Under the pieces are notes generated by a model that saw only the letters and a program-made list of their open reading frames with translations, did no database searches and was not told the origin of the DNA. A DNA stretch of 64,000 nt from Halanaerobiales bacterium. Lineage in GTDB: Bacteria; Bacillota; Halanaerobiia; Halanaerobiales; M55B127. The position numbers were made by a program, and so were the translations under genes. Where the stretch lies: assembly GCA_034521955.1 (NCBI GenBank), contig JAXHLT010000003.1, forward strand, positions 4,735 through 68,734, read 5' to 3'. Below are positions 5,501 through 45,750 of the stretch, in pieces. Each line of letters opens with the position of its first letter. Position 1 is the first letter of the stretch.

Positions 5501-6007
5501 TTAATTTAGAAAATACAGTTTTTTGTTTAATATTTTTATAGTAAAGTTTAATACTATCCCTACAAATAATCCTTCAATACAGAATAATATTAATAATCTA
5601 AAATTATTGTAATTTACAATCGTTAAAAGGACATTTAATATATTTGTTCCAAGAAATAGATCTGTTAAATATATGGATAAATAAAAACCTAAAGCAAGTC
5701 CTAAAGATAGAATGATGATCTTAATATATTTGTTAAGATTAATCTTGGAATATAATACTAATATTAAAGATATAATAATATATAAAACTATAAAAACAAG
5801 TTGTTGTATAAAAAACAACATAATAATAATTAAAAGAGTGATCACAATAGAAATACTTTCTAAAAGATTAAACATCTTAAAGTAAATGTAAAGAGTAAGT
5901 GGTACAACAATACTATTAAAAATATTTATACTTCCTCTGAAAAGATTAAAGGAGATAATTATTATTACTAGTGAAACTGCTCCATAAGTTATACTTTTTA
6001 ATTTCAT
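5501..6007 (-). CDS. Hypothetical polytopic membrane protein
   Basis: 168 aa, about 5 hydrophobic segments, RBS AAGGGGA upstream of the ATG. No family recognised. Confidence 0.55.
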   Translation of the reverse strand: MKLKSITYGAVSLVIIIISFNLFRGSINIFNSIVVPLTLYIYFKMFNLLESISIVITLLIIIMLFFIQQLVFIVLYIIISLILVLYSKINLNKYIKIIILSLGLALGFYLSIYLTDLFLGTNILNVLLTIVNYNNFRLLILFCIEGLFVGIVLNFTIKILNKKLYFLN

Positions 6008-18268: not shown

Positions 18269-19576
18269 ATGGGATTTATAATAAATAACCCACAGCTTTG
18301 GAGAAAAAAAGGTATAGATGATAAATTAAATGAAGAAATTAAGACAAAGGTAGATAAAGATGGGAAACTAGAACTGTCAAAAGAGATTGTAGATAAATTG
18401 AATTTAAAACCAGAAACAGAACTTAGATTAAGAAATGATGGAGATACACTTATGATAAAAAGAGCTGATCCTTTGTTAAGTCGTGTATATATAGAACCTA
18501 CAACCGACTGTAACTTAAACTGTAAGACCTGTGTAAGACATTCCTGGGATGAAAAAATCGGGAGAATGGATTTACAAGATTACATAAAAATTATTGATGA
18601 TTTAAAAGAATTTGATAATTTAGATAGGATAAGTTTTTGGGGAATAGGAGAGCCTCTTTATCATCCTGATATTGTAGAGATGATTAAAAGGGCTAAACAA
18701 TTAAATGTTAACACCCAAATTATTACAAACGGTCTTTTACTAGATGAAAGTATGTCTCGGAATTTATTAAAAGCAGGATTAGATAGTCTAGTTGTTTCAT
18801 TAGATGGTACATCTCCAGAAACGATGGCTGATATTAGATCTGGAGCTAATCTAGAAGAGATAATTAATAATGTAAAAACATTTAAGAATCTAAAGTCAAA
18901 ATATAATGATAATAAAACAGAAATCGGAATAGAATTTGTAATTATGAAATCTAATGTAGGCGAGTTAAAAGACTTAAGAAAATTAGCACTTGAATTAGGT
19001 GCGTCTTTCATATTTTTAACAAATCTATTACCTTATACAGAAGCGATGACAGATGAAATACTTTATTCATTTAGTAATAGTAGGTCACAGCCAGAAGAAA
19101 GAACAGAACATAGACCTGAAATATATCTTCCGCCAACAGATTTAAATAAAGATACAGTAAATTCAATTTCAAAGATAGTGGGTAAAACCAGTTCAATTAG
19201 TACGAGACAGGTCCCTTTCGATCCCCACAATGGGTACTGTAAGTTTGTAGAACAGGGTAGTGTAGCTATTAATTGGAAAGGTGAAGTTAGTCCATGTGTG
19301 CCATTAATGCATAGTTATGACTGTTATATAAGAGAAAGAAAAAAACATTTTAAATCTTATGATCTTGGTAATATACAAGATAGTGCATTAGAGGATATAT
19401 ATAATAGTGGAGAGTTTAAAGAATTCAGAAAGAAATTAATTGAATTTCCTTTTTCAGAATGTACACAGTGTTCAGGGTGTGATATGTCTAAAACAAATGA
19501 AAAAGACTGTCATGGGAATACCTTCCCTGTTTGTGGAGACTGTTTGTGGGGTAAGGGAATTGTGCAATGTCCATAA
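18269..19576 (+). CDS. Radical SAM/SPASM-domain protein with N-terminal AbrB/SpoVT-like domain (candidate tungsten-enzyme maturase)
   Basis: The rSAM cluster is CNLNCKTCVRH (Cx3Cx2C). The C-terminus is Cys-rich and SPASM-like (CKFVEQG...SPCVPL...CTQCSGCDM...CHGNTFPVCGDCLWGKGIVQCP). The N-terminus KLELSKEIVDKLNLKPETELRLRNDGDTLMIKR is AbrB-like. Confidence 0.75.
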   Translation: MGFIINNPQLWRKKGIDDKLNEEIKTKVDKDGKLELSKEIVDKLNLKPETELRLRNDGDTLMIKRADPLLSRVYIEPTTDCNLNCKTCVRHSWDEKIGRMDLQDYIKIIDDLKEFDNLDRISFWGIGEPLYHPDIVEMIKRAKQLNVNTQIITNGLLLDESMSRNLLKAGLDSLVVSLDGTSPETMADIRSGANLEEIINNVKTFKNLKSKYNDNKTEIGIEFVIMKSNVGELKDLRKLALELGASFIFLTNLLPYTEAMTDEILYSFSNSRSQPEERTEHRPEIYLPPTDLNKDTVNSISKIVGKTSSISTRQVPFDPHNGYCKFVEQGSVAINWKGEVSPCVPLMHSYDCYIRERKKHFKSYDLGNIQDSALEDIYNSGEFKEFRKKLIEFPFSECTQCSGCDMSKTNEKDCHGNTFPVCGDCLWGKGIVQCP

Positions 19577-19608: not shown

Positions 19609-19650
19609 CTTATAAAGGAATTTTAGGTTTTCCCTGTAATTAATATAATA

Positions 19651-19752
19651 TACCTTCGAGTCTTGGAGCCTAAAAAACTAATAATGTTTTATGGCAAATT
19701 GACCGCTGGGTTATAGTAGAAATACTATAGCCTCCCGTGTTTGGAAAGAAGA
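19651..19752 (+). promoter_or_regulatory. Moco/Tuco riboswitch candidate, aptamer (second copy)
   Basis: P1 CUUC(19654-57)/GAAG(19748-51). GAG. GUCUUG/CAA..GAC. GACCG. Hairpin GGUUAUAGUA(19709-18)-GAAA-UACUAUAGCC(19723-32), then UCCC and GGAAAG. RBS AAAGGAGG at 19761-68 follows directly, with no terminator. Confidence 0.7.
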
Positions 19753-19776
19753 TAAATCATAAAGGAGGTATAATTA

Positions 19777-21583
19777 ATGGGGAAAATTCAAGAATTTTCA
19801 GTACTAAGAGTTGATTTAGGAAAACAAACGGTAAAAAGAGAGATAATTGCAGGTGAAAGAGTAGAAAAGTATTTAGGAGGTAGAGGATTAGCATCAAAAA
19901 TTCTATATGATGAGATTGATCCCAAAGTAGATCCTTTAAGTCCTGAAAACAAACTAATTTATGCTACAGGTTTACTGACTGGTACAGCTGCCTCCACAGG
20001 TGGACGTTATATGGTTGTTACTAAGGGTCCATTAACCGGTACAATAGCAAGTAGTAATTCCGGTGGATTTTTTGGTGCAGAGCTTCGTTTTAGCGGTAAT
20101 GATATGATTATCTTTGAAGGTAAGTCTGATAAACCGGTTTATCTTTCAATCAAGGGAGATAAAGCAGAGTTAAAAGATGCCTCACATATTTGGGGTAAAA
20201 AAGTAAATGAAACAACAGATATGTTAATAGAGGAATTTGGTGATGATGGTGCTAGGGTAAGTTGTATAGGTCCTGCGGGAGAAAACCAGGTAATGTTTGC
20301 ATCTATTATGAATGAAAAACATAGAGCTGCCGGTCGTACAGGTGTTGGTGCAGTTATGGGTTCGAAAAATCTTAAAGCTGTTATAGTTAAATCTGATGAG
20401 AATAAAGTTAATTATGATAAAGAAAGTGCAATGGAAGTTGTTAGAAAACAAACTAAAATGTTAAAAGAAGATGGTGTTACAGGTGAAGGACTCCCTGCTT
20501 TAGGAACAAAAGTATTAGATAACATTATTAATTCTAATGGTCTTTATCCATCAAATAACTTCCAGTTTGGAACATTTGATAAGACTGAAGAAGTATCTGG
20601 AGAGGCTTTAGTTGAAAAAGGTTACTTACAGTCTAATAAAGGTTGTTATGGATGTCCAATAAGATGTGGACGTGACGTAAAACTACCTAATGGTAGATCT
20701 GGTGAAGGACCTGAATATGAAACAGGTTGGGCCTTTGGAGCAGACTGTGGAGTTGATGATTTAAATGCAATAACTGAGGCTAACTTTTTATGTAATGAAT
20801 TAGGACTCGATACAATAAGTGCCGGTACTACAATAGCCTGTGCAATGGAATTGATATGAAAACGGTTATATAGATAAAGAAGAATTAGAAAATGGTCCTG
20901 AACTTAATTTTGGTTCTTCTGAATCAATTATTTATTATACAAAGCAAATGGCTTATAGAGAAGGTTTTGGAGACAAATTAGCTATGGGATCATATCGATT
21001 AGCTGATTCTAAAGGTCATCCTGAACTTTCAATGTCAGTTAAAAAGCAGGAACTTCCTGCATATGACCCAAGAGGAGTTCAAGGTCAAGGTTTACAGTAT
21101 GCAACTTCAAATCGAGGAGGTTGTCATGTAAGAGGTTATATGATATCACCTGAGGTAATTGGTGCTCCTGAGAAGTTAGATCCACAAGAATTAAAAGGTA
21201 AACCAGAATGGGTTAAAATATTCCAGGACTTAACAGCTGTAATAGATTCAGTGGGAATGTGTTTATTTACTTCATTTGCATTAGGTTTAGATGACTATAA
21301 AGAGATAGTAAATGCTGGAACAGACTTTAATTATACTTCAGATGAACTTTTACAAGCTGGAGAAAGAATATATAACTTAGAAAGAAAGTTTAATTTAGAA
21401 GCCGGAATAAGTCCTAAAGAAGATAAACTTCCTAATCGTTTTACAGATGTTCCACTTCCTGATGGCCCACAAAAAGGTGTTGTTTCTAAATATAAAGAAA
21501 TATTACCTAAATATTATGAAGAAAGAGGATGGACTCCTGAAGGAGAAATCAGTACTGATAAAATTAATGAATTAGGATTATAA
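19777..21583 (+). pseudogene. aor: Tungsten-type aldehyde:ferredoxin oxidoreductase (classical ~602 aa), interrupted by one extra base
   Basis: Track ORFs 19777-20859 and 20948-21583 form one protein. Skipping A 20854 gives ...CAMEL-YENGYIDKEELENGPELNFGSSESIIYYTKQMAYREG.... Motifs present: GGRGL, GPLTG, CYGCPIRCGR, EYETGWAFGADCG, GLDTIS. Confidence 0.85.
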
Positions 21584-22443: not shown

Positions 22444-22989
22444 ATGAATACTAAAAAGTATGTTTACAGTTCTTTATTTATTGCATTAGGAATTTTATTA
22501 CCAATGATTTTTCATGTTATAGGTGGACCAAGCTTGGGAAGAGTTTTATTACCGATGCATTTGCCGGTATTAATAGGTGGGGCTTTTGTAGGACCTTTAT
22601 TTGGTTTAATTATAGGGTTAATTACTCCAATTTTAAGTTCATTGTTTACAGGAATGCCACCAGTTTTACCTATATTACCAATTATGGTTGGAGAGCTAGC
22701 AGTGTATGGACTTGTTATGGGTTATCTTTTTAATAGAATTAAAATGAATGCCTATCTATCGTTAATATTAACTATGCTTGCTGGACGTATAATGGCTTCA
22801 ATCATAGTAATGGGACTTGTCTATGGATTTGGTTTTGGTCAACTTCCAGGCAATCCAATTCTATATATTTATGGAACTATAACAGCAGGTATGCCGGGTA
22901 TTATAGGACAACTTATAATAGTACCTATTGTGATAAATTATTTAAAAAAGTATAACAGTTCTAAATTATCAACTGAATCTGTTTTTTAA
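22444..22989 (+). CDS. ECF-transporter S-component-like membrane protein (substrate unknown)
   Basis: 181 aa with 5-6 TM segments. It is Gly/Pro-rich (LLPMHLPVLIGGAFVGPLFGLIIGLITP), like ECF S components. RBS AAGGAGGA. Confidence 0.4.
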   Translation: MNTKKYVYSSLFIALGILLPMIFHVIGGPSLGRVLLPMHLPVLIGGAFVGPLFGLIIGLITPILSSLFTGMPPVLPILPIMVGELAVYGLVMGYLFNRIKMNAYLSLILTMLAGRIMASIIVMGLVYGFGFGQLPGNPILYIYGTITAGMPGIIGQLIIVPIVINYLKKYNSSKLSTESVF

Positions 22990-25464: not shown

Positions 25465-26480
25465 GTGATAGAATTGAGTAAAGAAAAGCTTATAGATGTT
25501 AATAATTTAGCAACATATTTTCATACTGAAGAAGGAACAGTAAAAGCGGTTGATGGAATAAGTTTTGATATCTATCCTGGAGAGACACTTGGAATAGTAG
25601 GTGAGTCAGGTTGTGGTAAAAGTGTAACATCACTATCCATTATGAGACTTATCGAATCTCCACCTGGACAGATCGAAAATGGCGAGATTATGTTTAACGG
25701 TAAAGACTTAACAAAGTTAAGCCAAAAGAGATGAGAAAGATCAGAGGTAATGATATCTCAATGATTTTTCAGGAGCCAATGACCTCCTTAAATCCGGTAT
25801 ATACCGTTGGAAATCAAATTATGGAAGCAATTTTAATCCATAAAGATGTAAACAAAAAAGAGGCCAGACAGCAAGCAATAGATATGTTAACAAAGGTAGG
25901 AATACCGCTTCCTGAACAGCGTGTAGACGAATATCCTCACCAGTTAAGTGGAGGTATGAGACAGCGTGTAATGATAGCAATGGCCCTATCATGTGATCCA
26001 CAGCTTCTAATCGCAGATGAGCCAACAACAGCGTTAGATGTAACAATTCAGGCTCAGATATTAGAGCTGATGAATGGTCTAAAAAGACAGTTCGGAATGG
26101 CAATAATGATGATCACTCACGATTTAGGTGTAATAGCAGAAGTATCAGATCGTGTAGCGGTAATGTATGCTGGAAAGATAGTAGAGTACACAGATGTTGA
26201 GACACTTTATGGAAATCCAAAACATCCATATACCTGGGGATTAATGCATTCAATTCCTCATATCGAAAAGGACTTAGACAGATTATTGGCGATACCGGGT
26301 AATGTACCGAATCCGCTTAATTTCCCAACTGGATGTAAGTATAACACAAGGTGTCAATTTGCAACAGATAAGTGTAGAACAGATGAACCTGACATAGAAG
26401 AGATAGAAGAAGGCCATCACGTAGCGTGCTGGCATATAGATAAGCTAGAAGAAGCCAAAAAAGAAAAGTATAGTGCTTAA
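25465..26480 (+). pseudogene. oppD: Oligopeptide ABC transporter ATPase OppD, 1-nt frameshift
   Basis: Track ORFs 25465-25734 and 25731-26480 form one protein. The frame breaks at the A4 run 25724-25727 (expected [21 protein letters not shown]). Walker [17 protein letters not shown], and a C-terminal oligopeptide-type Cys-rich tail. Confidence 0.85.
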
Positions 26481-28734: not shown

Positions 28735-29964
28735 ATGTTACTAATAAAAAACGCACAATTGGTTGGTGAAAAAAATAAAAAGGATATATTAATTAAGGAA
28801 GGTATTTATTTTAAAATTGAGGATAACATTACTCCTACTGAGGATTGTGAAATTATCGATGCTAAAGGTAATTTAGTAACCCCAACATTTGTAAATCCAC
28901 ATATGCATTTAGACAAGGTATATACAGCTCTTGACGGCAGACAAAGTATAGAAGAAACATTAGAAGAATCAATTACCATTATGCATAAAGCCAAAAGAAA
29001 TTATACAGTTGAAAGTGTTAAAAAAAGAGCCATTAGAGCTATCAAGGACTGTGTAGGTTTTGGTACAACCAAAATTAGAACTAGTGTAGATATTGATAAT
29101 ATTATCGGTTTAACAGGTTTAAAAGGGGTTATGGAAGCTAAAAAAGAGTGTGAAGATATCTGTGATATACAGATAGTAGCTTTTCCACAGGAAGGTATAT
29201 ATAACAATGAAGGAACTGAAGAATTATTATGGGAAGCTATGGAATATGGTGCAGACTTAATTGGAGGTATGCCAGCTGCCGAATATACTGACAAGTATTC
29301 AAAAAAACATGTTGATTTAGTATTTGAGATAGCAAAAAAATATGATGTGGATATTGATATGCATATTGACCAGACTAAAGATATTTTTGCAAGATCTCTT
29401 GAATATACAGCTATGAGATCTTATGAAGAAGGATATCAGGGTAGAGTAACAGGAGGTCACTGTACATCAATAACTTATCAAAATGATGCTCATGCAAAAA
29501 AAGTTATGGAACTTTTAAAGTTTGTAGATTTTAATGTATGTACAAATCCACAAGTTATAGCCATAATGGGTATAGATCCTGAACCAAGAACAAGAGGTGT
29601 TACAAGAATAAGAGAAATGGTTGAGATGGGTATCAATATTGCAACCGCTCAAGATACAATATGTGATGGGTTCCATATTTTTGGAAAAGGTGATCCTCTA
29701 GACTATGGTCTTTTATTATCATATGTAGCACAGTATAATACACCGGATAAAGTAAAAATTATATATGATATGATCACTAAAAATGCTGCTAAGATACATC
29801 GTCTTGAAGGTTATGGAATTGGTGTTGGAAATAAAGCAGATTTAAACATAATAGATGCAAAAAATTTACAAGAAGCATTTAGAACCAGAGCAGATAGAAG
29901 TTATGTGATTAAAGATGGGAAAGTGCTTGTTAGAAATTATAGTAGAAGAGAATATCTGATATAA
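28735..29964 (+). CDS. Metal-dependent amidohydrolase, cytosine-deaminase-like
   Basis: FVNPHMHLDK (HxH metal motif), later DMHIDQ and ATAQDT. 409 aa, the size and layout of the CodA/AtzC-type subfamily. Confidence 0.65.
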   Translation: MLLIKNAQLVGEKNKKDILIKEGIYFKIEDNITPTEDCEIIDAKGNLVTPTFVNPHMHLDKVYTALDGRQSIEETLEESITIMHKAKRNYTVESVKKRAIRAIKDCVGFGTTKIRTSVDIDNIIGLTGLKGVMEAKKECEDICDIQIVAFPQEGIYNNEGTEELLWEAMEYGADLIGGMPAAEYTDKYSKKHVDLVFEIAKKYDVDIDMHIDQTKDIFARSLEYTAMRSYEEGYQGRVTGGHCTSITYQNDAHAKKVMELLKFVDFNVCTNPQVIAIMGIDPEPRTRGVTRIREMVEMGINIATAQDTICDGFHIFGKGDPLDYGLLLSYVAQYNTPDKVKIIYDMITKNAAKIHRLEGYGIGVGNKADLNIIDAKNLQEAFRTRADRSYVIKDGKVLVRNYSRREYLI

Positions 29965-29974
29965 TCAAAATAAT

Positions 29975-30029
29975 AAACCCTTTTTGGTATGCATTTTTAA
30001 AATATAACATACTAAAAAGGGGTTTTTTT
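29975..30029. terminator. Bidirectional terminator (long hairpin)
   Basis: AAACCCUUUUUGGUAUG...CAUACUAAAAAGGGGUUU followed by U7, between convergent genes. Confidence 0.75.
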
Positions 30030-30978
30030 AACTAAATATATAATAAAGTATAAATGAAAGTAGATATGTAATATTTATCCAAAGAAAGTTTTTAATTGAT
30101 GTTTTGAAAGTACTTTTTTTACTTTGTTTTCTTAAAAATAATTTAGTATTATTATATACAGGTAAAATGGTAAAAAATACTAATAATGAAATGACAGGAA
30201 TTATTTTTAAAAATATAAGAAACAATATATTAATATAAGATAGAATATACAAAGATTTAAAAAGTATTAACGATTTTTCTTTACCAATATAGATTGGTAA
30301 TGTATAACGCTCATTTTTAATATCATCGTCAATATCTGAAATATTATTTGCTAACATAATATTAGCAACACTTAATACAACAGGTAATGAGACTAAAAAT
30401 ATAATAATTAATTTTAAAATGTCTATCTCTAAAAATATTCTGTAGTTTTCTATTAATATATTAATAATTTTACTATTCATATCAAGATGAATATGAACAG
30501 CTAAAAAGAATACAACAAACCCCATAAAAAAACTAGATAATAATTCACCAAACGGAGTTCTTGATATAGGAATTGGACCAAAAGAGTATGTAATTCCAAC
30601 TATAAATGATATAATTCCAACAAATAATACGATTAAATCAGTTCTTAGAAATAAAATCAATCCACTAATAATTGCTAATAGTAACATAGTAAAAATTGTT
30701 GTGATAACTGTGGTTGTTTTTAAACTATAATTATTAATAGGGTTATGAACATTATAGTTATAACCTTGTTCATGTTTAGCCTTTTTGTAGTCATAGTAAT
30801 GATTTGTAGCAGTAGTAGTCATATCTATTAATATTACAGATATGAAAAAAAGCAGTAAGTTTAACACCTTTAATTGCCCAAATCTATTTAAAGTATAAAA
30901 GGTTCCTAACAATAAGGGGATCATACTGGAAACTTTAGTTCGTATTTCAACTAAGGATATAAAACTTTTTATATTCAA
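30028..30978 (-). CDS. menA: UbiA-family prenyltransferase, MenA/DmkA-like (1,4-dihydroxy-2-naphthoate polyprenyltransferase)
   Basis: 316 aa with 8-9 TM segments. NHYYDYKKA (first Asp-rich motif) and ANNISDIDDDIKNERYTLPIYIG (second motif), as in MenA. TTG start with GGAG RBS. Confidence 0.7.
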   Translation of the reverse strand: MNIKSFISLVEIRTKVSSMIPLLLGTFYTLNRFGQLKVLNLLLFFISVILIDMTTTATNHYYDYKKAKHEQGYNYNVHNPINNYSLKTTTVITTIFTMLLLAIISGLILFLRTDLIVLFVGIISFIVGITYSFGPIPISRTPFGELLSSFFMGFVVFFLAVHIHLDMNSKIINILIENYRIFLEIDILKLIIIFLVSLPVVLSVANIMLANNISDIDDDIKNERYTLPIYIGKEKSLILFKSLYILSYINILFLIFLKIIPVISLLVFFTILPVYNNTKLFLRKQSKKSTFKTSIKNFLWINITYLLSFILYYIFS

Positions 30979-31269: not shown

Positions 31270-32155
31270 ATGGAAGATAAATTCAAAGGAGCTTTAATGG
31301 GTTTAATAGTAGGAGATGCTCTTGGTGCACCATTTGAAGGAATGAAAAGTAAAAATATTAAATTTGATAATAAGATGGAAAGTGGTGGACCACATAATAT
31401 AAGAGCTGGCCAATGGACAGATGATAGTTCGATGGCTCTTTGTTTAGCTGAAAGTTTAATAAAAGATGGTTTTGATTTAGAAAGTCAGATGAATCGTTAT
31501 GTTAAATGGTTTGAAAACGGTTATCTAAGTTCCAAAAAGAAATCATTTGGAATAGGTAGTAATACTAGTTTAGCAATAACAGATTTCATACAAAAAAATG
31601 AACTGCCTCCTCAAAGAGAAAAAGCAGCAGGTAATGGCAGTATAATGAGATTGGCACCTATTCCCATGTATTACATAAATAACTATGATAAAACAGTTTA
31701 TTATTCAGCCAAAGAGCTCTATAACAACACATAATAATATTATGGCTATAGATTCTTGTAAATTTTTAGGTGCATTTATACATTATGCGATAAATGGTAA
31801 GGATAAAAACTTTTTAATTGGTGATGTATATAAAAATATGGATCTTGATGAACGTGTTTTAGATAGAGTTAAGGGTGATTTTAAAAATAAGGATAGAAAA
31901 GATATTAATTCAGACGCTTTTGTGTTAAATACCCTTGAAGCTAGTTTATGGTGTTTTTATAATTCAGATGATTATGAATCTGCTGTAAAGCTTGCAGTTA
32001 ATTTAGGAGGAGATACTGATACAACAGCAGCAGTTACTGGACAAATGGCGGGATCATTTTATGGTAGCAGTAGTATTCCAAAAGATTGGATTAATAAATT
32101 AGCAAAAAAAGAGCTTATACTAAGTCTAATAAGAGGATTAAAACAAGCACTATAG
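31270..32155 (+). pseudogene. ADP-ribosylglycohydrolase family protein (DraG/ARH-like), 1-nt frameshift
   Basis: GALMGLIVGDALGAPFEG...WTDDSSMAL, then after about 31711-31716 the +1 frame reads SSITTHNN...GGDTDTTAAVTGQMAGSFYG. Confidence 0.8.
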
Positions 32156-32313: not shown

Positions 32314-33279
32314 GTGTTTGTAATTACAATTTCAAGGCAGTCATCAAGCCTCGGAGAAGAAATTGCTGAAGAATTAGCAAATAAATTAGGGGTAAAATTA
32401 TTAACAAGAGACCATGTAATTAATAATTGGCTTTCAGATGTTGCTGATGATCATGATATACATATGTTAAAAGAGACATCTAAACATTATTTAAAGTCAG
32501 CACAAAATGGTAAAACATTTAAAGATATAATTATAAAGAAATTAAAAATGAAAGTTGAGAAAGAAAATCTTGTCATTTTAGGACTGGGCTCTCAAATTAT
32601 CTTTAAGGATTATGCTCATGCTGTTCATGTGAAGATAATATGTTCGGATAAAATTAGAGTTCAACGTGTAATGGAAAAATATAATATAAATAGAGAGCGA
32701 GCAATAAGATCTGTTGATTTAAGTGATAGAAAACATAGAAGATATGTGCATAGATTATTTAATAAGGATTGGAACAATAGTTCATTGTATCATCTTAATA
32801 TTAATACAGCAGGGTTAGCTGTTAATGAAGCTGTAAACTTAATTATTCACCTTCTTGAGATGAAAAAAGAAAATCCAGAATCATTATTTAAAAACTTAGA
32901 TAAATATAAAAGTCATATAAATAAATCAGAAGATATAGATTTTGTTCATGATAGTGAAAAGGATTTTGCAGAAATATTGGATATGTATAATATTAAGTGG
33001 GAGTATGAACCCTCAGAATTCCCTCTAGAGTGGGATGCAGAGGGTAATATATCAATGGGTTTTAGACCTGACTTTTATCTTCCTGAATTCGATACTTATA
33101 TCGAACTTACAACCATGAAACAAAAATATGTAACAGAAAAAAATAAAAAAGTAAAGATGTTACAAAAACTTTATCCAAATATAAATATTAATATTGTATA
33201 TAAAAAGGATTATCATAAACTATTGAATAGATTTGGTATAAATGAAATAAAAGAAGATGAAGGTGAAAATGATGAATAA
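32314..33279 (+). CDS. Fusion protein: cytidylate-kinase-like N-domain plus PD-(D/E)xK-nuclease-like C-domain (function unknown)
   Basis: The N-terminus ITISRQSSSLGEEIAEELANKLGVKLLTRD resembles the cytidylate kinase-like family. The C-terminus ...GFRPDFYLPEFDTYIELTTMKQKY resembles a restriction-endonuclease-like core. GTG start after AAGGAGG. The 3' end overlaps hpt by 23 nt. Confidence 0.5.
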   Translation: MFVITISRQSSSLGEEIAEELANKLGVKLLTRDHVINNWLSDVADDHDIHMLKETSKHYLKSAQNGKTFKDIIIKKLKMKVEKENLVILGLGSQIIFKDYAHAVHVKIICSDKIRVQRVMEKYNINRERAIRSVDLSDRKHRRYVHRLFNKDWNNSSLYHLNINTAGLAVNEAVNLIIHLLEMKKENPESLFKNLDKYKSHINKSEDIDFVHDSEKDFAEILDMYNIKWEYEPSEFPLEWDAEGNISMGFRPDFYLPEFDTYIELTTMKQKYVTEKNKKVKMLQKLYPNININIVYKKDYHKLLNRFGINEIKEDEGENDE

Positions 33280-33800
33280 TGAAAACATTGGAGAAATTAT
33301 TTTTAGTGAAAAGGATATTAAAAATAGGGTTTTAACAGTAGCTGAAGAGATTAGTAAAGATTATAAAAATACTGAACCAATTTTGATAGGAATTTTTAAG
33401 GGATCTGTATACTTTTTGTCAGACTTAAGTAGGTCTTTAGAATATTGAACATAATATTGATTTTTTATCAATTGGAAGGTTTAAAACAACGGAAGAGTCG
33501 AAAGAAAAGGTTAAAATAACAAAAGATTTAGATTTAAGTATTAGAAATCGAGATATAATTGTAATTGAAGATATTATAAGAACTGGTTTAACTCATAGTT
33601 ATATTTTAAAAAATTTAAAACCTAGAAGACCCAATAGTATAAATTTATGTGTTTTTTTAGATTGTAAAAAACAGAGGTTGGTTGATTTACCTATTAAATA
33701 TAGTGGATTTGATCTTGATGATCGCTTTGTAGTTGGTTATGGATTAGATTATGAAGAAAAATATAGGAACTTGCCATTTATTGCAGAGTATATAAAATAA
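33257..33800 (+). pseudogene. hpt: Hypoxanthine phosphoribosyltransferase, 1-nt frameshift
   Basis: IIFSEKDIKNRVLTVAEEISKDY...ILIGIFKGSVYFLSDL, then after about 33438-33446 the +1 frame reads IEHNIDFLSIGRF...DIIVIEDIIRTGLT...VVGYGLDYEEKYRNLPFIAEY. Confidence 0.85.
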
Positions 33801-34336: not shown

Positions 34337-34784
34337 TTGTTAAAAGGATTTAAAAGTTTTATCTTGAAAGGTAATGTAGTGGAAATGGCTGTAGGTATTA
34401 TTATTGGCTTGGCATTTAATAAGATTATATCATCTTTTGTTAATGATGTATTAATGCCTCCTCTTAGTTTGATAATTGGAAAAATAAATTTTTCAAATTT
34501 ATATATCAATTTAAGTCAAAGAGAATTTGAATCTTTAGCTGTAGCTGAAGAAGCAGGAGTTCCAATAATTAAATATGGACTTTTTATAAACACACTTAGT
34601 TGATTTTATAATAGTTGCTTTTGTTTTATATATGGTTATAACCTATTATAATAAATTAAATGAAAAAAAGAAAAAAGAAGAAGTTGCTAAAGCATCGGAT
34701 ACTAAAGAATGTCCTTATTGTTTTTCAACTATTAATATTAAAGCTACTGTTTGTCCAGAATGTACAACTAATTTAGAAAATTAA
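34337..34784 (+). pseudogene. mscL: Large-conductance mechanosensitive channel MscL with C-terminal CxxC..CxxC tail, 1-nt frameshift
   Basis: MLKGFKSFILKGNVVEMAVGIIIGLAF... The frame changes at about 34596-34600 to [13 protein letters not shown]...[24 protein letters not shown] start after AAGGAGG. Confidence 0.85.
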
Positions 34785-36403: not shown

Positions 36404-37339
36404 ATGAAATATTTATATGGACCGGTTCCATCAAGAAGATTGGGAGTATCTTTAGGTATTGATTTAATACCTTATAAGATTTGTTCATTTAACTGTATAT
36501 ACTGTGAATGTGGTAAAACTACTAATTTATCTATTAAAAGAAAAGAATTTAAACCAGTTGAAAAAATTATAAAGGAGTTAGATGAATATCTAAAAGAAAA
36601 ACCTAAACTAGATTATATTACTTTTTCAGGTTCAGGAGAACCAACTTTATATTTACATCTAGGAAAGATTATAAAATTTATTAAAGCTAATTATCCCGAA
36701 TATAAATTAGCATTGTTAACAAATAGTAGTTTGTTGGGGGATAAAAGTCTTAGAAATGAATTAAAAGAACTTGATTTAATAGTTCCTTCTATAGATTCTG
36801 TTATTGATAAGAATTATAAAAAAATTAATCAACCTCATAAGGACATAACTTTAAATCAGATTATAGAAGGTTTAATTTCTTTAAGAAAAGAGTTTAAAGG
36901 TAAAATATTTCTAGAGATATTTATTGTACCAGGTATAAATGATAGTGAAGATGAGTTTAAAAAGTTTAAAGGAATTATAGATAAGATAAATCCTGATCGG
37001 GTACAAATTAATACTTTAGATCGTCCCGGTACCGAAAAATGGGTAGAACCTGCTGATAAAAATATACTTGAAAAAGCTGTAGAAATTATTGGTAAGAAGG
37101 CAGAAATTATTGGTCCTTATATACCTGAAAAAACTACGGTTAAGTTAAGTCATGCTGTAAAAAAAAGAATTATTGAAATGATTAGCAGAAGACCCTGTAC
37201 TGTAAAAGATCTTTCTGAAATATTAAACTTACATGTTAATGAAGTTAATAAATATCTAAGAGAAATAGATCAAGAAATAGACATACAAACAAAGGATGAA
37301 AAAAGAGGTAAGTTTTATTTTATTATGAAGGAGGTCTAA
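36404..37339 (+). CDS. Radical SAM protein (COG0731-like) with C-terminal winged-helix-like tail
   Basis: CSFNCIYCECG (Cx3Cx2C), FSGSGEPTL (SAM-binding GGE-like). The C-terminus RIIEMISRRPCTVKDLSEILNLHVNEVNKYLREI is HTH-like. Confidence 0.7.
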   Translation: MKYLYGPVPSRRLGVSLGIDLIPYKICSFNCIYCECGKTTNLSIKRKEFKPVEKIIKELDEYLKEKPKLDYITFSGSGEPTLYLHLGKIIKFIKANYPEYKLALLTNSSLLGDKSLRNELKELDLIVPSIDSVIDKNYKKINQPHKDITLNQIIEGLISLRKEFKGKIFLEIFIVPGINDSEDEFKKFKGIIDKINPDRVQINTLDRPGTEKWVEPADKNILEKAVEIIGKKAEIIGPYIPEKTTVKLSHAVKKRIIEMISRRPCTVKDLSEILNLHVNEVNKYLREIDQEIDIQTKDEKRGKFYFIMKEV

Positions 37340-40768: not shown

Positions 40769-40794
40769 AAAGGAGAGCAGTTAAGCTCTCCTTT
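40769..40794. terminator. Terminator hairpin (mainly for minus-strand ndh2; shared with the + gene)
   Basis: Perfect 10-bp stem AAAGGAGAGC/GCUCUCCUUU. The U-run is on the minus-strand side. Confidence 0.75.
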
Positions 40795-40814: not shown

Positions 40815-42593
40815 TTATGCAGATCTGTCTTTGCGGTAACTAACCGGTTTTTTATTTAAATTGAAAAGCCAAGGCATAACATAATAGTCTAAACCGAAAG
40901 CTCTTCCTGCTCCTGCAAGTAAAGTGATTGAAATTAATAATATCCAAAGTGGTTCCCAAATACCAGCTGTAGAACCAATAGCACCAATTACAAAGTTAAC
41001 ACTTAATGCTATTGAGACAAGTGCAAATATAAATGTAAATAGTCCTGCTATTAATGCTAGTCCTATAATAAGTTCTGTTATAACCATTACTTTTTGGAAA
41101 AACACCTGATTAGGTACTACAAATGTTTCCATTAAGGTTACATAAAAGTCTGGTGTTCCAGCACTCCATAAATAAGATGAAGCACCTGATACTAAGTATT
41201 CTTCTGAACCTAACCACCCGGTTTGAACTTTATCTATACCTGAAAGTAAGAACCTTAATCCAACAAATATTCTTAGAAAGGCTAACCAGAAGGTTCCGGA
41301 TTTTTTCATCATATGTCTTACAACCATACCTATACCTCCTCGTGTATCTTTAAATTGATGTTCAATATAATCTCCTATTAAACTAAAACCGCCAATTCCA
41401 AATAAATAATGCATATTTATCAAATGTTTAGTAAACATAGCCCAAAAACCTTTAAGTTTAAGTGTATAATCACCAAACGGTTTTAATTCAGCTACAGCAT
41501 AATTTGAACCTACAGAAACCATAATACCATGCATTTGTGGTTCGAAAACTTCCAATGATTTGTTTTTAATTTTGGCTTCAATATTTTCTGCAACACATTC
41601 TCCACCTTGAACAGCTGCCTCAACTAACTGAGGGAGTGGATGTTCTAAGTCATGAGTGAACAATGCATTATCACCAATAGCATATACATTATCAAATTTT
41701 GTGGTTTGTAAATATTTATCAACTTTTATACGATTATCTCTACTTAATTCAAGATCGGTTTCTTTAAGAATTTCTTTACCTTTAACTCCACCTGTCCAGA
41801 TAACAGTGTTAGAATCAATTCTTTTTCTGTCATCACCATCTGATTGTGTTTCACTTATTTCAATGTAGTCTTTGGTAACATTACAGATTGCATATCCATC
41901 AATAATTTCAACATCTAACTCTTCTTCTAAATAATCTTCTGCAAGACTACATTGGTCATCAGATAAAACAGGTAGTATTCTTTCTAAAGCTTCAACTACA
42001 ATTAAGTTAACTTCACTTTTAGAAATATCATAGGTAAGACATAAATCATCAAACCATTCACCTAACTCACCAGCAGTTTCAATACCGGTAAAGCCACCGC
42101 CCCCAATTATAAATGTTAACATTTTTTTACGCTTTTTTAAATCTGATTCATTAGCAGCTAACTTAAACATATTTCTAATATGTTCTCTTAATGTTAGCGC
42201 ATCTTCTTGAGACCATAAAGTAAACGAATTATGTTCCATACCAGGTATATTATAATAGGTAGGTTCACTACCAATACCTAAAACTAAATGGTCATAATTG
42301 TATACCTGATTTTCGGAGCTGATTTGATTATTTTCTAAATCAAAACCAGTTATTCTGTCTTTGATAATATTTACTTTAGTATTTTCAAAGATTTGTTCAA
42401 TAGAAACTTCAACTCCACTTTTGTCGACTCTGTTTCCAGCAACTTCGTGTAACTCGGTTAATAAAATATGTTCATCGCGATCATTTATTAGATCGATATA
42501 TACTTCTGGATCTTTACGGAATTTTTTATTTAATCTTCTTGCTGCTTCAATTCCAGCATATCCAGCACCGAGTATTAGTATTCTCTTGCTCAT
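40815..42593 (-). CDS. ndh: Type II NADH dehydrogenase (NDH-2) fused to a C-terminal DoxX-like multi-TM domain
   Basis: RBS AAGGGGGA then ATG 42593 (the track starts at 42638). ILILGAGYAGIE and IIGGGGFTGIE are the dinucleotide folds. The last ~170 aa are 4 TM segments ending GRAFGLDYY, which is DoxX-like. Confidence 0.8.
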   Translation of the reverse strand: MSKRILILGAGYAGIEAARRLNKKFRKDPEVYIDLINDRDEHILLTELHEVAGNRVDKSGVEVSIEQIFENTKVNIIKDRITGFDLENNQISSENQVYNYDHLVLGIGSEPTYYNIPGMEHNSFTLWSQEDALTLREHIRNMFKLAANESDLKKRKKMLTFIIGGGGFTGIETAGELGEWFDDLCLTYDISKSEVNLIVVEALERILPVLSDDQCSLAEDYLEEELDVEIIDGYAICNVTKDYIEISETQSDGDDRKRIDSNTVIWTGGVKGKEILKETDLELSRDNRIKVDKYLQTTKFDNVYAIGDNALFTHDLEHPLPQLVEAAVQGGECVAENIEAKIKNKSLEVFEPQMHGIMVSVGSNYAVAELKPFGDYTLKLKGFWAMFTKHLINMHYLFGIGGFSLIGDYIEHQFKDTRGGIGMVVRHMMKKSGTFWLAFLRIFVGLRFLLSGIDKVQTGWLGSEEYLVSGASSYLWSAGTPDFYVTLMETFVVPNQVFFQKVMVITELIIGLALIAGLFTFIFALVSIALSVNFVIGAIGSTAGIWEPLWILLISITLLAGAGRAFGLDYYVMPWLFNLNKKPVSYRKDRSA

Positions 42594-42826
42594 ATAATCC
42601 CCCTTTACTAAATGATATTTTATAATGTGAATTTTCAAACTTAAATTAATATATAATTCACAATAAAAGATAAAATTTATTTACTTACTAATTTAAATAA
42701 TAACTTATCTTAACAATATTTTTCAAGATAAATCTGAGTTTTCCTCTAAAATTTATCTAATTAATTTGCATTTTGAGAAAAAATTCATTATAATATATTA
42801 CATAATAGACAAAAGGAGGGATAGCT

Positions 42827-43531
42827 GTGAGAAAAATCACACAAAAATCAATTTTATCTTTAGTTGCAATCTTTGTATTAGTTGCTGCATTTTCTGTAGT
42901 AGCTGGAGCACAGGATTTAAATGATGGTGAATATGTTGGTCATGTTCCTGGTGATCATGGAGACATAGTTATTGAGGTGAAAGTTAATTTTGGAGAAATT
43001 ACTGGGGTAGAGATTTTAAACAATCTTAAAATCACTAAATATCCACATGAAGAAGCTCGCGAATATTTTGTCAACTTTCCTTCAGCTGTAATTAGAAACC
43101 AAGGTACTGAAGGTATTGACGTAATTTCAGGTGCTACAGGTTCCCATGAGTCATATACTGAAGCTGTTAATATGGCTGTTAGTATTGCAAATGGTACTTA
43201 TGAAGGAAATACTTTTTATGGTGTGGGTAGAGATTATGAACATGGTCACTATTTAGTAAAAGCTGTAATTGAAGGAGAAGAAATTCAATCTGTAGAAATC
43301 GTTACAGCCAAAGATCCTGAGAATGAAGCACTTGTAGGAGACAAAGTTGCAGGAGATTATCCTTATGAAGAAGCTGTAGAAACATTTGAAAAATGGCCAG
43401 AAATGGTTGTTGAAAATCAATCTGTTAATGTAGACGTTGTTTCTGGTGCTACACATACAGATCATGGTTTAAATGGTGCTTTAGCACAATGTTTAACACA
43501 AGCTGGTTTAAATCCAGACGACTATAAATAA
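42827..43531 (+). CDS. Secreted protein with two FMN-binding (FMN_bind) domains, PplA-like
   Basis: Signal peptide ...VLVAAFSVVAGA/QD with no lipobox Cys. Two domains each end in the flavinylation motif (VISGATGS and VVSGATHT). GTG start after AAGGAGGGA. Confidence 0.7.
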   Translation: MRKITQKSILSLVAIFVLVAAFSVVAGAQDLNDGEYVGHVPGDHGDIVIEVKVNFGEITGVEILNNLKITKYPHEEAREYFVNFPSAVIRNQGTEGIDVISGATGSHESYTEAVNMAVSIANGTYEGNTFYGVGRDYEHGHYLVKAVIEGEEIQSVEIVTAKDPENEALVGDKVAGDYPYEEAVETFEKWPEMVVENQSVNVDVVSGATHTDHGLNGALAQCLTQAGLNPDDYK

Positions 43532-43558
43532 ACACAAAAATTAATATTATACTTATGA

Positions 43559-43587
43559 TAAGAGCCCTTTAATTAGGGCTCTTGTTT
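43559..43587 (+). terminator. Hairpin, weak terminator
   Basis: AGAGCCC-UUUAAUUA-GGGCUCU then UGUUU. Confidence 0.5.
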
Positions 43588-43626
43588 AATAGTATAAATA
43601 ACTAAAAGATAAGGTGACGATTAATA

Positions 43627-44709
43627 ATGAATTATAAAAGATTTGCTTTTGCAGTATTAATATTACTAATTATAGTTACAGGTGTATATTTTATTAGTGA
43701 TAATAATAACAATGAATCAACTCAAATCAATAATGAAAATAATAACAATGTAGAAGTTAAGCAAAGTGAAGGCTCTGAATTTTTAATGAACACATTAGTA
43801 AGAGTACGCATTCATGATGAAAAATCTGAAGAGATTCTAGAAGGAGTCTTAGACAGAATTAGAGAATTGGAAAACATTTTAAGTAAAACCATTGAAAATA
43901 GTGATGTATACAAAATTAATCTTAATGCAGGTAAAGAACCTGTACAAGTAGATAAAAGAACCTATGAATTATTGGAAGAAGCATTGTTTTTTGCTGAAAA
44001 GACTAATGGTTCATTTGATCCAAGTATTAATCCTATAGTATCATTATGGGGAATAGGTACTAAAGATGAAAGAGTTCCTTCAGAAGAAGAAATCAAAAAT
44101 ACTATCAGAAAAGTTAATTATAATAACCTTGCATTAATGGATGATAATAATGTATACTTAGAAAATGAAGATATGTCAATAGATTTAGGTGCAATAGCTA
44201 AGGGTTATGCAGCTGATAAAATAATTACATATTTAAGTGAAAATGATGTTGAAAGTGCTTTTATAAATATGGGTGGTAATGTATCTGTACATAGAAAAAA
44301 AGTTGATGGTTCTTTATGGAATATTGGAATTCAGGATCCTGATCGTACAAGAGGAAATATTATTGCAGCTGTAAAAGGTGAAGATATTTCTGTTGTGACT
44401 TCAGGTAATTATGAAAGATATTTTACTGAAGCAGGAGTAAGATATCATCATATAATTGATCCTGAAAGTGGTTATCCAGCCAAAAACGGTATCATAAGTT
44501 CAACAGTTATTTCAAATGATTCAAGTTATGCTGATGCACTATCTACTTCACTTTATATATTGGGAGTAGAAAAAGCATTTGAGTTAGTCAAAGATATGGA
44601 AGATATTAATATAGTTTTAATAACTGAAGAGGACAAAGCTTATGTAAGTAAAGATCTAAAAGATAAAATAACATTTACTGTTGATGAGCTTGATGTTATA
44701 TATAAATAA
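43627..44709 (+). CDS. apbE: ApbE-family FAD:protein FMN transferase (FmnB-like), membrane-anchored
   Basis: N-terminal TM anchor. FDPSINPIVSLWG, DLGAIAKGYAADK, GGNV, HHIIDPESGYPA are ApbE hallmarks. Confidence 0.85.
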   Translation: MNYKRFAFAVLILLIIVTGVYFISDNNNNESTQINNENNNNVEVKQSEGSEFLMNTLVRVRIHDEKSEEILEGVLDRIRELENILSKTIENSDVYKINLNAGKEPVQVDKRTYELLEEALFFAEKTNGSFDPSINPIVSLWGIGTKDERVPSEEEIKNTIRKVNYNNLALMDDNNVYLENEDMSIDLGAIAKGYAADKIITYLSENDVESAFINMGGNVSVHRKKVDGSLWNIGIQDPDRTRGNIIAAVKGEDISVVTSGNYERYFTEAGVRYHHIIDPESGYPAKNGIISSTVISNDSSYADALSTSLYILGVEKAFELVKDMEDINIVLITEEDKAYVSKDLKDKITFTVDELDVIYK

Positions 44710-44736
44710 TATATTAAGTTAAATGTAGGTGATTAT

Positions 44737-45723
44737 ATGTTTTGGGATCAGTATCCCGAGTTTTCAGATGAATTAAATAATTTTGAAGGATACTTTCAGG
44801 ATCAATTATCAAGCAGCAATAGATTAATATCTGATGAAATTAAAAGACTTGCTCAGGCGGGTGGTAAAAGGATAAGACCAGCCTTGGTGTTAGCTGTAGG
44901 TCATCTTGGAGATTATAATAAAGATAGGATTTGGCCGATGGCATCAGCTATGGAAATGATACATTTAGCTACTTTAATTCATGATGATGTTATTGATAAG
45001 TCTCCTTTAAGAAGAGGTGTGAATACCACACATAAGCATTATTCAAATAAAACCGCTATTTTTATGGGGGATTATCTTTTTGCATTAGCAATTGAAGTTA
45101 TTATAAGTGAGTTTGGTAATGAAAATATAGATGACGCCTTATTAAGGCAGATTAAAAACACAATAAAAAGTATTAAGCTGCTTTGTGAAGGAGAAGTTTC
45201 TCAGTTCGAAAGACAGTATAAAAAAATACCTTCTTTTAAACAATACTTAGAAGGAATTAAAAGAAAAACTGCTCTGATGTTTAAATCAAGCACATTATTG
45301 GGAGCAGATTTATCTAAAATGAATAAATATCAAGTATATAAGATGGGTAAATTAGGATATTATATGGGGATGTCTTTTCAGTTGGTTGATGACCTTTTTG
45401 ATTTTCAAGAAAAAAATGAAAAGCTGGGAAAACCTCAAAAAAATGATTTTACTCAAGGTATTTTCACATTACCAATTATTTATGTATATAATGAAGGGGA
45501 TAAAGTTTTAAGAGAAAAACTTGATAAGTACTTAGATGAGCCAGAAAAGTACTCAGAAGAAATTAAAAAAATAGTTCATAAAAATGGTGGAATTGAATAT
45601 ACAGAGAAATTAGCTTATAGATATAAAGATAAAGCACAAAATATTATTGGTTCATATCAGGATAATTATTATGGAGAAATAATTTACTGGTTGACGGAAA
45701 AAATTATAGGAAGAAGATTTTAA
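44737..45723 (+). CDS. trans-Polyprenyl diphosphate synthase (HepT/IspB/DmkB-like)
   Basis: GGKRIRP, first DDxxD LIHDDVIDKS, second QLVDDLFDF, KT..DF.QG. Confidence 0.85.
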   Translation: MFWDQYPEFSDELNNFEGYFQDQLSSSNRLISDEIKRLAQAGGKRIRPALVLAVGHLGDYNKDRIWPMASAMEMIHLATLIHDDVIDKSPLRRGVNTTHKHYSNKTAIFMGDYLFALAIEVIISEFGNENIDDALLRQIKNTIKSIKLLCEGEVSQFERQYKKIPSFKQYLEGIKRKTALMFKSSTLLGADLSKMNKYQVYKMGKLGYYMGMSFQLVDDLFDFQEKNEKLGKPQKNDFTQGIFTLPIIYVYNEGDKVLREKLDKYLDEPEKYSEEIKKIVHKNGGIEYTEKLAYRYKDKAQNIIGSYQDNYYGEIIYWLTEKIIGRRF

Positions 45724-45750
45724 AACATCGGTTTACCGGTGTTTTTTTTT
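45723..45750 (+). terminator. Intrinsic terminator
   Basis: AACAUCGG-UUUA-CCGGUGUU followed by U9. Confidence 0.8.

Follow-up and report, generated by a model that had tools for sequence, protein, structure and literature searches.

A probable Listeria-type flavin-based electron-transfer module of an uncultured, salt-loving Halanaerobiales bacterium

Among the closest described counterparts of the genes discussed here is the flavin-based extracellular electron transfer (EET) locus of Listeria monocytogenes, which, in the 2018 account of Light and colleagues, is reportedly arranged as fmnA-dmkA-fmnB-pplA / ndh2-eetA-eetB-dmkB. Our subject is a four-gene cluster at positions 40815-45723 of a 64,000-nucleotide stretch (the window) of contig JAXHLT010000003.1, positions 4,735 to 68,734, from an uncultured bacterium of the order Halanaerobiales (assembly GCA_034521955.1). 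We consider it probable that this cluster gives a halophilic host a module for flavin-based electron transfer out of the cytosol (EET/FLEET) of the Listeria type, a reading that draws on the homology and domains of the parts, on their motifs and operon structure, on conserved sequence and synteny, and on the transcription of the locus by close relatives.

Clusters of this kind have been collected by Meheust et al. 2021, whose operational definition of EET asks for an NADH dehydrogenase of type K03885 that has transmembrane helices and whose gene lies at most five genes away from one for ApbE or FMN_bind with a signal peptide; in the window, ndh2 adjoins both an FMN_bind gene with a signal peptide and apbE, and the cluster falls under this definition. 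Genes NC_011899.1_1520-1523 of Halothermothrix orenii are labelled EET in the same census (eLife, Supplementary file 1), and because their architecture is near-identical, the window's locus belongs to an already catalogued type. Its flavoprotein secreted by signal peptidase I (SPI) and its lack of nearby eetA and eetB are real for the window but not new, both being tabulated for H. orenii.

Gene content and Listeria counterparts

An earlier note on this DNA, prepared from the letters and their open reading frames (ORFs), had placed ndh2 on the minus strand, divergent from a plus-strand operon, and ORFs and Pfam domains agree. There are four ORFs, with ndh2 facing away from a three-gene operon (flavoprotein, apbE, polyprenyl synthase), and both transcription units end at terminator-like hairpins. 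The features are as follows.

40815..42593, minus strand: ndh2, encoding a 592-residue type II NADH dehydrogenase (NDH-2) with a C-terminal membrane tail
41376-42593, minus strand: NDH-2 domain of Ndh2, residues 1-406 (Pfam and alignment with PDB 4nwz)
40818-41375, minus strand: DoxX/DoxD-like four-helix tail of Ndh2, residues 407-592 (Pfam)
41094..41234, minus strand: loop 1 of the Ndh2 tail, residues 454-500, predicted to be extracytoplasmic
41178-41189, minus strand: core motif S469-G-A-S472 within EYLVSGASSYL (translation of loop 1)
40769..40794, minus strand: terminator-like hairpin and T-run right behind the ndh2 stop (sequence scan)
42594..42826: divergent intergenic region between ndh2 and the flavoprotein gene, with promoter-like sites and an inverted repeat
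42765-42794, plus strand, and 42726-42697, minus strand: promoter-like sites of the intergenic region, the number of such matches being not above chance
42827..43531, plus strand: gene for a PplA-like flavoprotein of 234 residues (Pfam FMN_bind)
43118-43138 and 43433-43453, plus strand: flavinylation motifs DVISGAT and DVVSGAT of the flavoprotein (translation)
43557..43586, plus strand: stem-loop between the flavoprotein gene and apbE (folding against shuffles)
43627..44709, plus strand: apbE/fmnB, encoding a flavin adenine dinucleotide (FAD):protein flavin mononucleotide (FMN) transferase of 360 residues (Pfam ApbE)
44737..45723, plus strand: dmkB-like gene (ispB) for a long-chain polyprenyl diphosphate synthase of 328 residues (Pfam polyprenyl_synt)
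45722..45745, plus strand: terminator-like hairpin and T-run closing the three-gene operon (sequence scan)
30028..30978, minus strand: dmkA/menA-like gene for a 1,4-dihydroxy-2-naphthoate (DHNA) polyprenyltransferase of 316 residues (NCBIfam NF004752)

What the earlier note had said of the individual proteins is recovered with profile and motif searches: an NDH-2 with two GxGxxG folds, a protein with a signal peptide and two FMN_bind domains carrying SGAT, an SPI site AGA/Q in place of a lipoprotein Cys, an ApbE-family transferase with an N-terminal membrane anchor, a polyprenyl synthase with both DDxxD motifs, and a MenA/DmkA-like gene at 30028-30978. Ndh2 matches Pyr_redox_2 at 124.6 bits and has its GxGxxG motifs at residues 9-14 and 165-170; its true start is the internal ATG at 42593 (592 residues) rather than the TTG at 42638 (607 residues), because all relatives begin MSKR, and its nearest named relatives, 57-59% identical, come from Orenia, Halanaerocella, Halanaerobacter and Halobacteroides, all of them Halanaerobiales. 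The flavoprotein matches FMN_bind over two stretches (57.6 bits), and its DVISGAT (residues 98-104) and DVVSGAT (203-209) are exact copies of D-x-x-[S/T]-G-A-[S/T]. Its Sec/SPI signal peptide spans residues 1-28 and, since its only Cys is at position 222, it has no lipobox; a search of solved structures returned only a weak match to a domain of a multi-FMN protein (E 0.08), and an exact-sequence look-up gave no record. The ApbE protein (293.6 bits) begins with a hydrophobic anchor, has no Cys and no lipobox, and finds its best PDB match in Listeria FmnB (7esa, 245 bits). The polyprenyl synthase (203 bits) carries DDVID at 83 and DDLFD at 218, and the MenA-type protein scores 323 bits on NF004752, above the cut-off of 289; its gene proved to lie on the minus strand, ~10 kb away from the ndh2/apbE cluster.

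The likeness to the Listeria EET locus, also proposed earlier, stands: the best Listeria matches of all five window proteins fall inside that locus. We read it from an annotated record (L088, Listeria monocytogenes NCTC7974, NZ_LR134400.1) that gives fmnA, fmnB, pplA, ndh2, eetA, eetB and dmkB. Ndh2 aligns with its Listeria namesake at 34.8% identity (E 5e-115), residues 3-591 against 4-623, tail included; ApbE aligns with FmnB (36.2%, E 6e-83) and IspB with DmkB (35.9%, E 8e-72), both over the full length; and the flavoprotein aligns with PplA at 26% identity over 173 residues (E 9e-6). In the complete Listeria chromosome NZ_CP030101.1, the best place for Ndh2 is ndh2, for MenA dmkA (42.6%; 1311773-1312684, inside the EET locus) and for IspB dmkB (35.3%), and the three matches together take up no more than 7.7 kb, a segment equivalent to the locus annotated in L088. 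As a side observation, L088 is filed as 'plasmid 3' yet carries chromosomal genes (ribosomal proteins, the EET locus), and its dmkA match at L088:3407-4317 runs in two frames, which suggests a frameshift or sequencing error.

Might the genes have come together incidentally? ApbE would then mainly mature Rnf (RnfG/RnfD), Ndh2, MenA and IspB would serve ordinary menaquinone respiration, and the FMN_bind protein would have an unrelated periplasmic role. An rnf operon does lie ~1-5 kb from ndh2 in Halobacteroides and Halanaerocella, several Halanaerobiales loci have apbE and ispB by ndh2 without an FMN_bind gene, and the flavoprotein gives weak RnfG-type matches in NCBIfam. However, those matches reach 17-20 bits against cut-offs of 205-230, the flavoprotein is not an RnfG/NqrC equivalog, and the 64-kb window holds no Rnf or Nqr gene. 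Additionally, the flavoprotein gene heads the apbE-ispB operon and is kept in the genus, the tail-bearing NDH-2 subtype is a marker of EET clusters across phyla, and in Listeria the window's MenA and IspB find their best matches in the EET paralogs DmkA and DmkB rather than in MenA and HepT. We regard incidental clustering as unlikely.

The tail of Ndh2

The C-terminal extension of Ndh2 had been described as DoxX-like, with four transmembrane segments and a length of ~170 residues; the family and the segments hold, whereas the length is ~186 residues (407-592). Residues 4-406 align with residues 5-393 of the 405 in the NDH-2 of PDB 4nwz, and because this covers nearly the whole of that enzyme, the tail is a true addition. 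It passes the Pfam gathering cut-offs of both DoxX (26.6 bits, cut-off 23.6) and DoxD (25.3 bits, cut-off 22.7), and its AlphaFold model, with a pLDDT of 82, has helices that match the four transmembrane segments. A fold search with this model against the PDB gave nothing significant, the best hit by TM-score being the four-helix protein NACHO/TMEM35A (TMt 0.60, E 3). Listeria Ndh2 has the same Pyr_redox_2 plus DoxX/DoxD architecture (DoxX 23.9 bits), and the supplement of Meheust et al. 2021 lists EET NADH dehydrogenases with Pyr_redox_2 and DoxX/DoxD in Lactiplantibacillus, Streptococcus, Paenibacillus, Niameybacter and a spirochaete, along with a Lactiplantibacillus cluster in which eetA (NusG_II) and eetB (PF07456) stand beside a tail-bearing ndh2. 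Judged by its sequence, the DoxX-like tail is the canonical tail of EET-type Ndh2 and not a substitute for EetA and EetB.

Such a substitution had been suggested in the earlier note, which had also found neither eetA nor eetB, and of these two claims only the absence survives. In the 64-kb window, a six-frame stop-to-stop hmmsearch with hidden Markov models (HMMs) of EetA and EetB found no homolog (best E 0.009 and 0.09), tblastn with the Listeria proteins gave no match for EetA and best E values of 4.9 for EetB and 3.2 for FmnA, and Pfam scans of all membrane ORFs detected no PF07456 and no PF07009. Two candidates for EetB, an energy-coupling factor (ECF) S-component at 22444-22989 and a protein with five transmembrane segments at 5501-6007, were rejected, as neither resembles Halobacteroides EetB and there is no FMN riboswitch; the S-component, downstream of a DUF3842 gene, matches PF12822 at 65.7 bits and, marginally, a riboflavin type at 27.4, and has no clear substrate family.

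To see how often these genes accompany the tail, we can turn to a count over tail-bearing ndh2 loci flanked on either side by 4 kb or more, in which HMM labels were checked against Pfam. Among 13 Halanaerobiales-type loci, ApbE is encoded in 13, IspB in 13, EetB in 2 and EetA in 0, and in 45 loci of other Firmicutes the counts are 30, 39, 29 and 25. An FMN_bind HMM matches seven of the 13 Halanaerobiales-type loci, about five of these with a flavinylation motif. That the tail took over the job of EetA and EetB in a reduced EET system would fit the absence of both genes from the window and from the clusters of its genus, of Halanaerobium and of Orenia. Against this stand the 29 of 45 non-Halanaerobiales loci where eetB accompanies a tail-bearing ndh2, and the same Pfam signature in the tails of Listeria Ndh2 and of published clusters that bear eetA and eetB. 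Moreover, EetB is the ECF-S substrate-binding subunit of an FAD exporter that works with FmnA, and cleanly deleting eetA produces no EET phenotype (PMC9973259). A takeover by the tail is thus extremely improbable; given these findings on EetB and eetA, the absence of the two genes touches flavin supply and not the electron path.

What, then, might the tail contribute? Its charges (five Lys and Arg before the first transmembrane segment and five at the C-terminus, an acidic loop 1 and then a hydrophobic hairpin) fit a predicted four-helix topology with both ends in the cytoplasm and loop 1 outside, with which the AlphaFold model is consistent. In that model an SGAS motif lies in coil between helices. 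The motif modified by ApbE is D-x-x-[S/T]-G-A-[S/T], in which mutation of the Asp has only a minor effect and which works when inserted into surface loops (PMC12052999). We tentatively propose that EET-type Ndh2 is itself a substrate of ApbE/FmnB, with a predicted covalent FMN on loop 1 (at S472 here and at the serine of TSGAS in Listeria), a possibility that we would put at a little below an even chance.

The comparison set offers numbers in favour of an ApbE-type tag being conserved in the tail's outer loop. The pattern [ST]GA[ST] occurs in the tail loop of 123 of 207 non-identical homologs, against 2.8 expected from composition-preserving shuffles (maximum 10), an enrichment to be read with the caveat that the homologs in these statistics are related to one another; outside the tail loop, the same 207 sequences contain it just three times. 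The consensus of 67 tail sequences is DxxSGAS, all 16 Halanaerobiales-type tails have [LI][VI]SGAS, and Listeria Ndh2 shows the motif once in its 628 residues, as TAATSGASQAA in the equivalent loop. In a non-redundant set clustered at 50% identity, 16 of 34 NDH-2 fusions contain D..[ST][GSA]A[ST] where 0.2 would be expected, and none of 26 stand-alone DoxX-like proteins does. Four divergent NDH-2/DoxX fusions (P0131, P0169, P0142 and P0232) have long outer loops rich in Ala, Ser and Thr with two to five tandem motifs, such as EAVSSAS and DTVTAASGA, which recall multi-flavinylated proteins. The Halanaerobiales sharpen the case for a flavinylated Ndh2, because ndh2, apbE and ispB occur together in 13 of 13 loci there, whereas many or all of these loci lack the PplA-like gene, eetB and eetA. 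Two caveats apply to it: although the window's loop has the core SGAS (469-472), the full stretch is YLVSGAS, with the Asp position replaced and a Ser as acceptor, and ApbE may also serve Rnf. By sequence, the loop falls in a tryptic peptide of 46 residues here (456-501) and of about 62 residues in Listeria, lengths that routine tryptic proteomics would probably overlook. A literature search on flavinylation of Ndh2 found no relevant paper.

If the proposal is correct, one polypeptide would conduct electrons from NADH to FAD, to quinone and on to an FMN at the outer face, supplying the missing quinol-to-flavoprotein step of flavin-based EET. Workers on Enterococcus have noted that the carriers leading from reduced demethylmenaquinone to extracellular acceptors are not known (PMC9864754), and a flavinylated Ndh2 would answer their question.

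Relatives, transcription and the rest of the window

The stretch recurs in metagenomes from salt pans, saline lakes and sediment. The nearest genomes, 81-85% identical, are metagenome-assembled genomes (MAGs) labelled Halanaerobiales bacterium, and these same-genus relatives match the window's gene order throughout and likewise have no eetB nearby. Of 37 flavoproteins from other lineages 35 carry a lipobox, as does that of Halobacteroides, and those of the window's clade have none; ApbE, too, lost its lipobox in that clade. In one same-genus MAG (L011:9300-10000) the FMN_bind gene between apbE and ndh2 appears degraded, with a 42-residue tblastn remnant at 64% identity, and ndh2, apbE and ispB are intact. 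Lipoproteins of 324-326 residues from Orenia and Halanaerobacter, brought in by an iterated FMN_bind HMM that had drifted, were discounted, as they have no Pfam family and no motif; in both genera such a lipoprotein is encoded directly downstream of ndh2 (L013:12076-13050, and a 326-residue ORF in L012) and may be a lineage-specific partner.

The EET locus is transcribed by close relatives, according to metatranscriptome contigs, in which DNA carry-over is possible. Contigs from two salt-lake metatranscriptomes (~90% identical relatives) cover ndh2 and the flavoprotein gene. The transcript contigs start at 42814-42820 and end at 43588 and 43614; one of them, 42814-43614, begins just past the predicted plus-strand promoter and stops just past the stem-loop, and in one relative a contig begins at 40761, near the terminator-like hairpin of ndh2. 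Contig depth, which reflects expression poorly, is higher on the flavoprotein gene than on apbE and ispB. The stem-loop at 43557-43586 (-25.1 kcal/mol, z -5.9, an equally stable fold in 0 of 200 shuffles) probably acts as a partial terminator or as a 3' end that stabilises the mRNA.

Between the divergent genes lies an inverted repeat, TGTGAAT-N23-ATTCACA (42626-42662), at a distance of 33 bp upstream of where ndh2 starts. The window contains it just once (0.03 expected), five same-genus MAG or metagenome loci keep it together with the plus-strand promoter, and it could be an operator. A Rex-type reading was set aside, as the 23-nt spacing of the half-sites does not fit the Rex-box consensus.

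Elsewhere in the window, five genes are split or truncated (31270-32155, 33257-33800, 34337-34603, 19777-21583 and 25731-26480; ADP-ribosylglycohydrolase, an HPRT-like gene, MscL, aldehyde:ferredoxin oxidoreductase and an Opp-type ATPase). Relatives at 81% identity have intact versions of ADP_ribosyl_GH (296 residues), Pribosyltran (175 residues) and MscL (149 residues). Either indel errors of the assembly or gene decay would account for the splits; the EET genes are intact. Two molybdenum/tungsten-cofactor riboswitches (33-159 and 19642-19767) stand ahead of Fe-S and aldehyde:ferredoxin oxidoreductase genes, and 18269-19576 encodes a homolog of the radical SAM maturase of tungsten-cofactor oxidoreductases.

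Electron path and known systems

From these components we infer which way the electrons flow, which quinone they reduce, a periplasmic location and a final acceptor, the last not being encoded in the window. Cytoplasmic NADH would be oxidised by the FAD-containing NDH-2 domain of Ndh2, and the electrons would reduce a dedicated quinone of the demethylmenaquinone type, its side chain and prenylation supplied by the DmkB-like synthase and the DmkA-like MenA; the DoxX-like tail would couple Ndh2 to this pool. The quinol would then reduce covalent FMN at the outer face of the cytoplasmic membrane, where a membrane-anchored, outward-facing ApbE would install FMN on T104 and T209 of the secreted two-domain flavoprotein. 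Halanaerobiales have a lipopolysaccharide outer membrane (PMC5007114), and because of this and the loss of lipid anchors in the window's clade, the flavoprotein would most likely act as a soluble periplasmic carrier and not as a surface-tethered one.

Could the module instead run mainly inward, or buffer redox state, with reduced periplasmic flavins or an external donor feeding the quinone pool? One study (PMC10701730) links FLEET components to cathodic electron uptake in Lactiplantibacillus plantarum, and Meheust et al. 2021 note that flow is reversible in principle. However, reduction of NAD+ by quinol is unfavourable, since NDH-2 is not energy-coupled, and no donor-side enzymes are encoded nearby. 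Halanaerobiales, moreover, are fermenters, which profit from NADH sinks. A mainly inward or buffering role is in our judgment very unlikely.

Several observations weigh against the assignment of the locus as an outward, Listeria-type module. With two membranes in the host, the module may serve periplasmic acceptors only and not extracellular ones. The 64-kb window contains no genes for the DHNA/menaquinone head-group pathway, and no terminal reductase or outer-membrane conduit was seen in it; an amidohydrolase (28735-29964) and a radical SAM protein (36404-37339) were considered as futalosine genes and rejected, NCBIfam placing them as cytosine-deaminase-like and as a generic radical SAM protein. 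Additionally, the 64-kb window lacks eetB and fmnA, two genes required for flavinylation in Listeria, and the flavoprotein is far from a true PplA on the NCBIfam PplA model (29 bits against a cut-off of 325).

The comparison with DoxX and DoxD proteins (PF07681, PF04173) is instructive for the tail. The Pfam cut-offs are passed, the model is a four-helix bundle, and a quinone-related role fits, DoxD being named by Pfam as a thiosulfate:quinone oxidoreductase subunit. In contrast to those families, the window's tail is fused to NDH-2 and bears a flavinylation-type motif in loop 1, a motif found in only 0-1 of 26 stand-alone DoxX proteins.

Among named Halanaerobiales, Halobacteroides halobius and Halanaerocella petrolearia (L001, L007) share with the window an Ndh2 at 58% identity and an apbE-ispB pair divergent from ndh2, but they keep eetB (PF07456) in the cluster and have an rnf operon adjacent; the flavoprotein, SPI-secreted in the window, takes the form of a lipoprotein in Halobacteroides, and Halanaerocella has none. 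In its tabulated features H. orenii, of the same order, has a 327-residue polyprenyl synthase, a 361-residue ApbE, an unlipidated Sec/SPI protein of 229 residues with two FMN_bind domains, a divergent 594-residue Ndh2 with Pyr_redox_2 and DoxX and, as in the window, no eetA or eetB within five genes. It differs in that its ApbE is a predicted lipoprotein and in that its cluster goes on with quinone genes of the UbiD/UbiA/UbiX type, whereas the window's MenA/DmkA-type gene is encoded elsewhere.

The window agrees with Listeria in several respects: its tail-bearing Ndh2 is homologous over the full length, its ndh2 faces away from fmnB and the pplA-like gene, the cluster includes a DmkB-like synthase and the genome a DmkA-like prenyltransferase, the flavoprotein has two domains and two D-x-x-S-G-A-T sites, and the loop of the Ndh2 tail has one [ST]GA[ST]. 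Unlike Listeria, the window has no eetA, eetB or fmnA in its 64 kb, its dmkA lies 10 kb off, its ApbE has no lipobox, and its host has two membranes; Listeria PplA is a surface lipoprotein of 299 residues, whereas the window's flavoprotein has 234, is SPI-secreted and is 26% identical. The locus thus adds a further uncultured halophile to the hosts of a catalogued system, in what appears to be a reduced version within a two-membrane host, with both extracytosolic proteins free of lipid anchors and the FAD-export genes unclustered, and this version points to a soluble periplasmic di-flavin carrier that would be analogous to the small periplasmic cytochromes.

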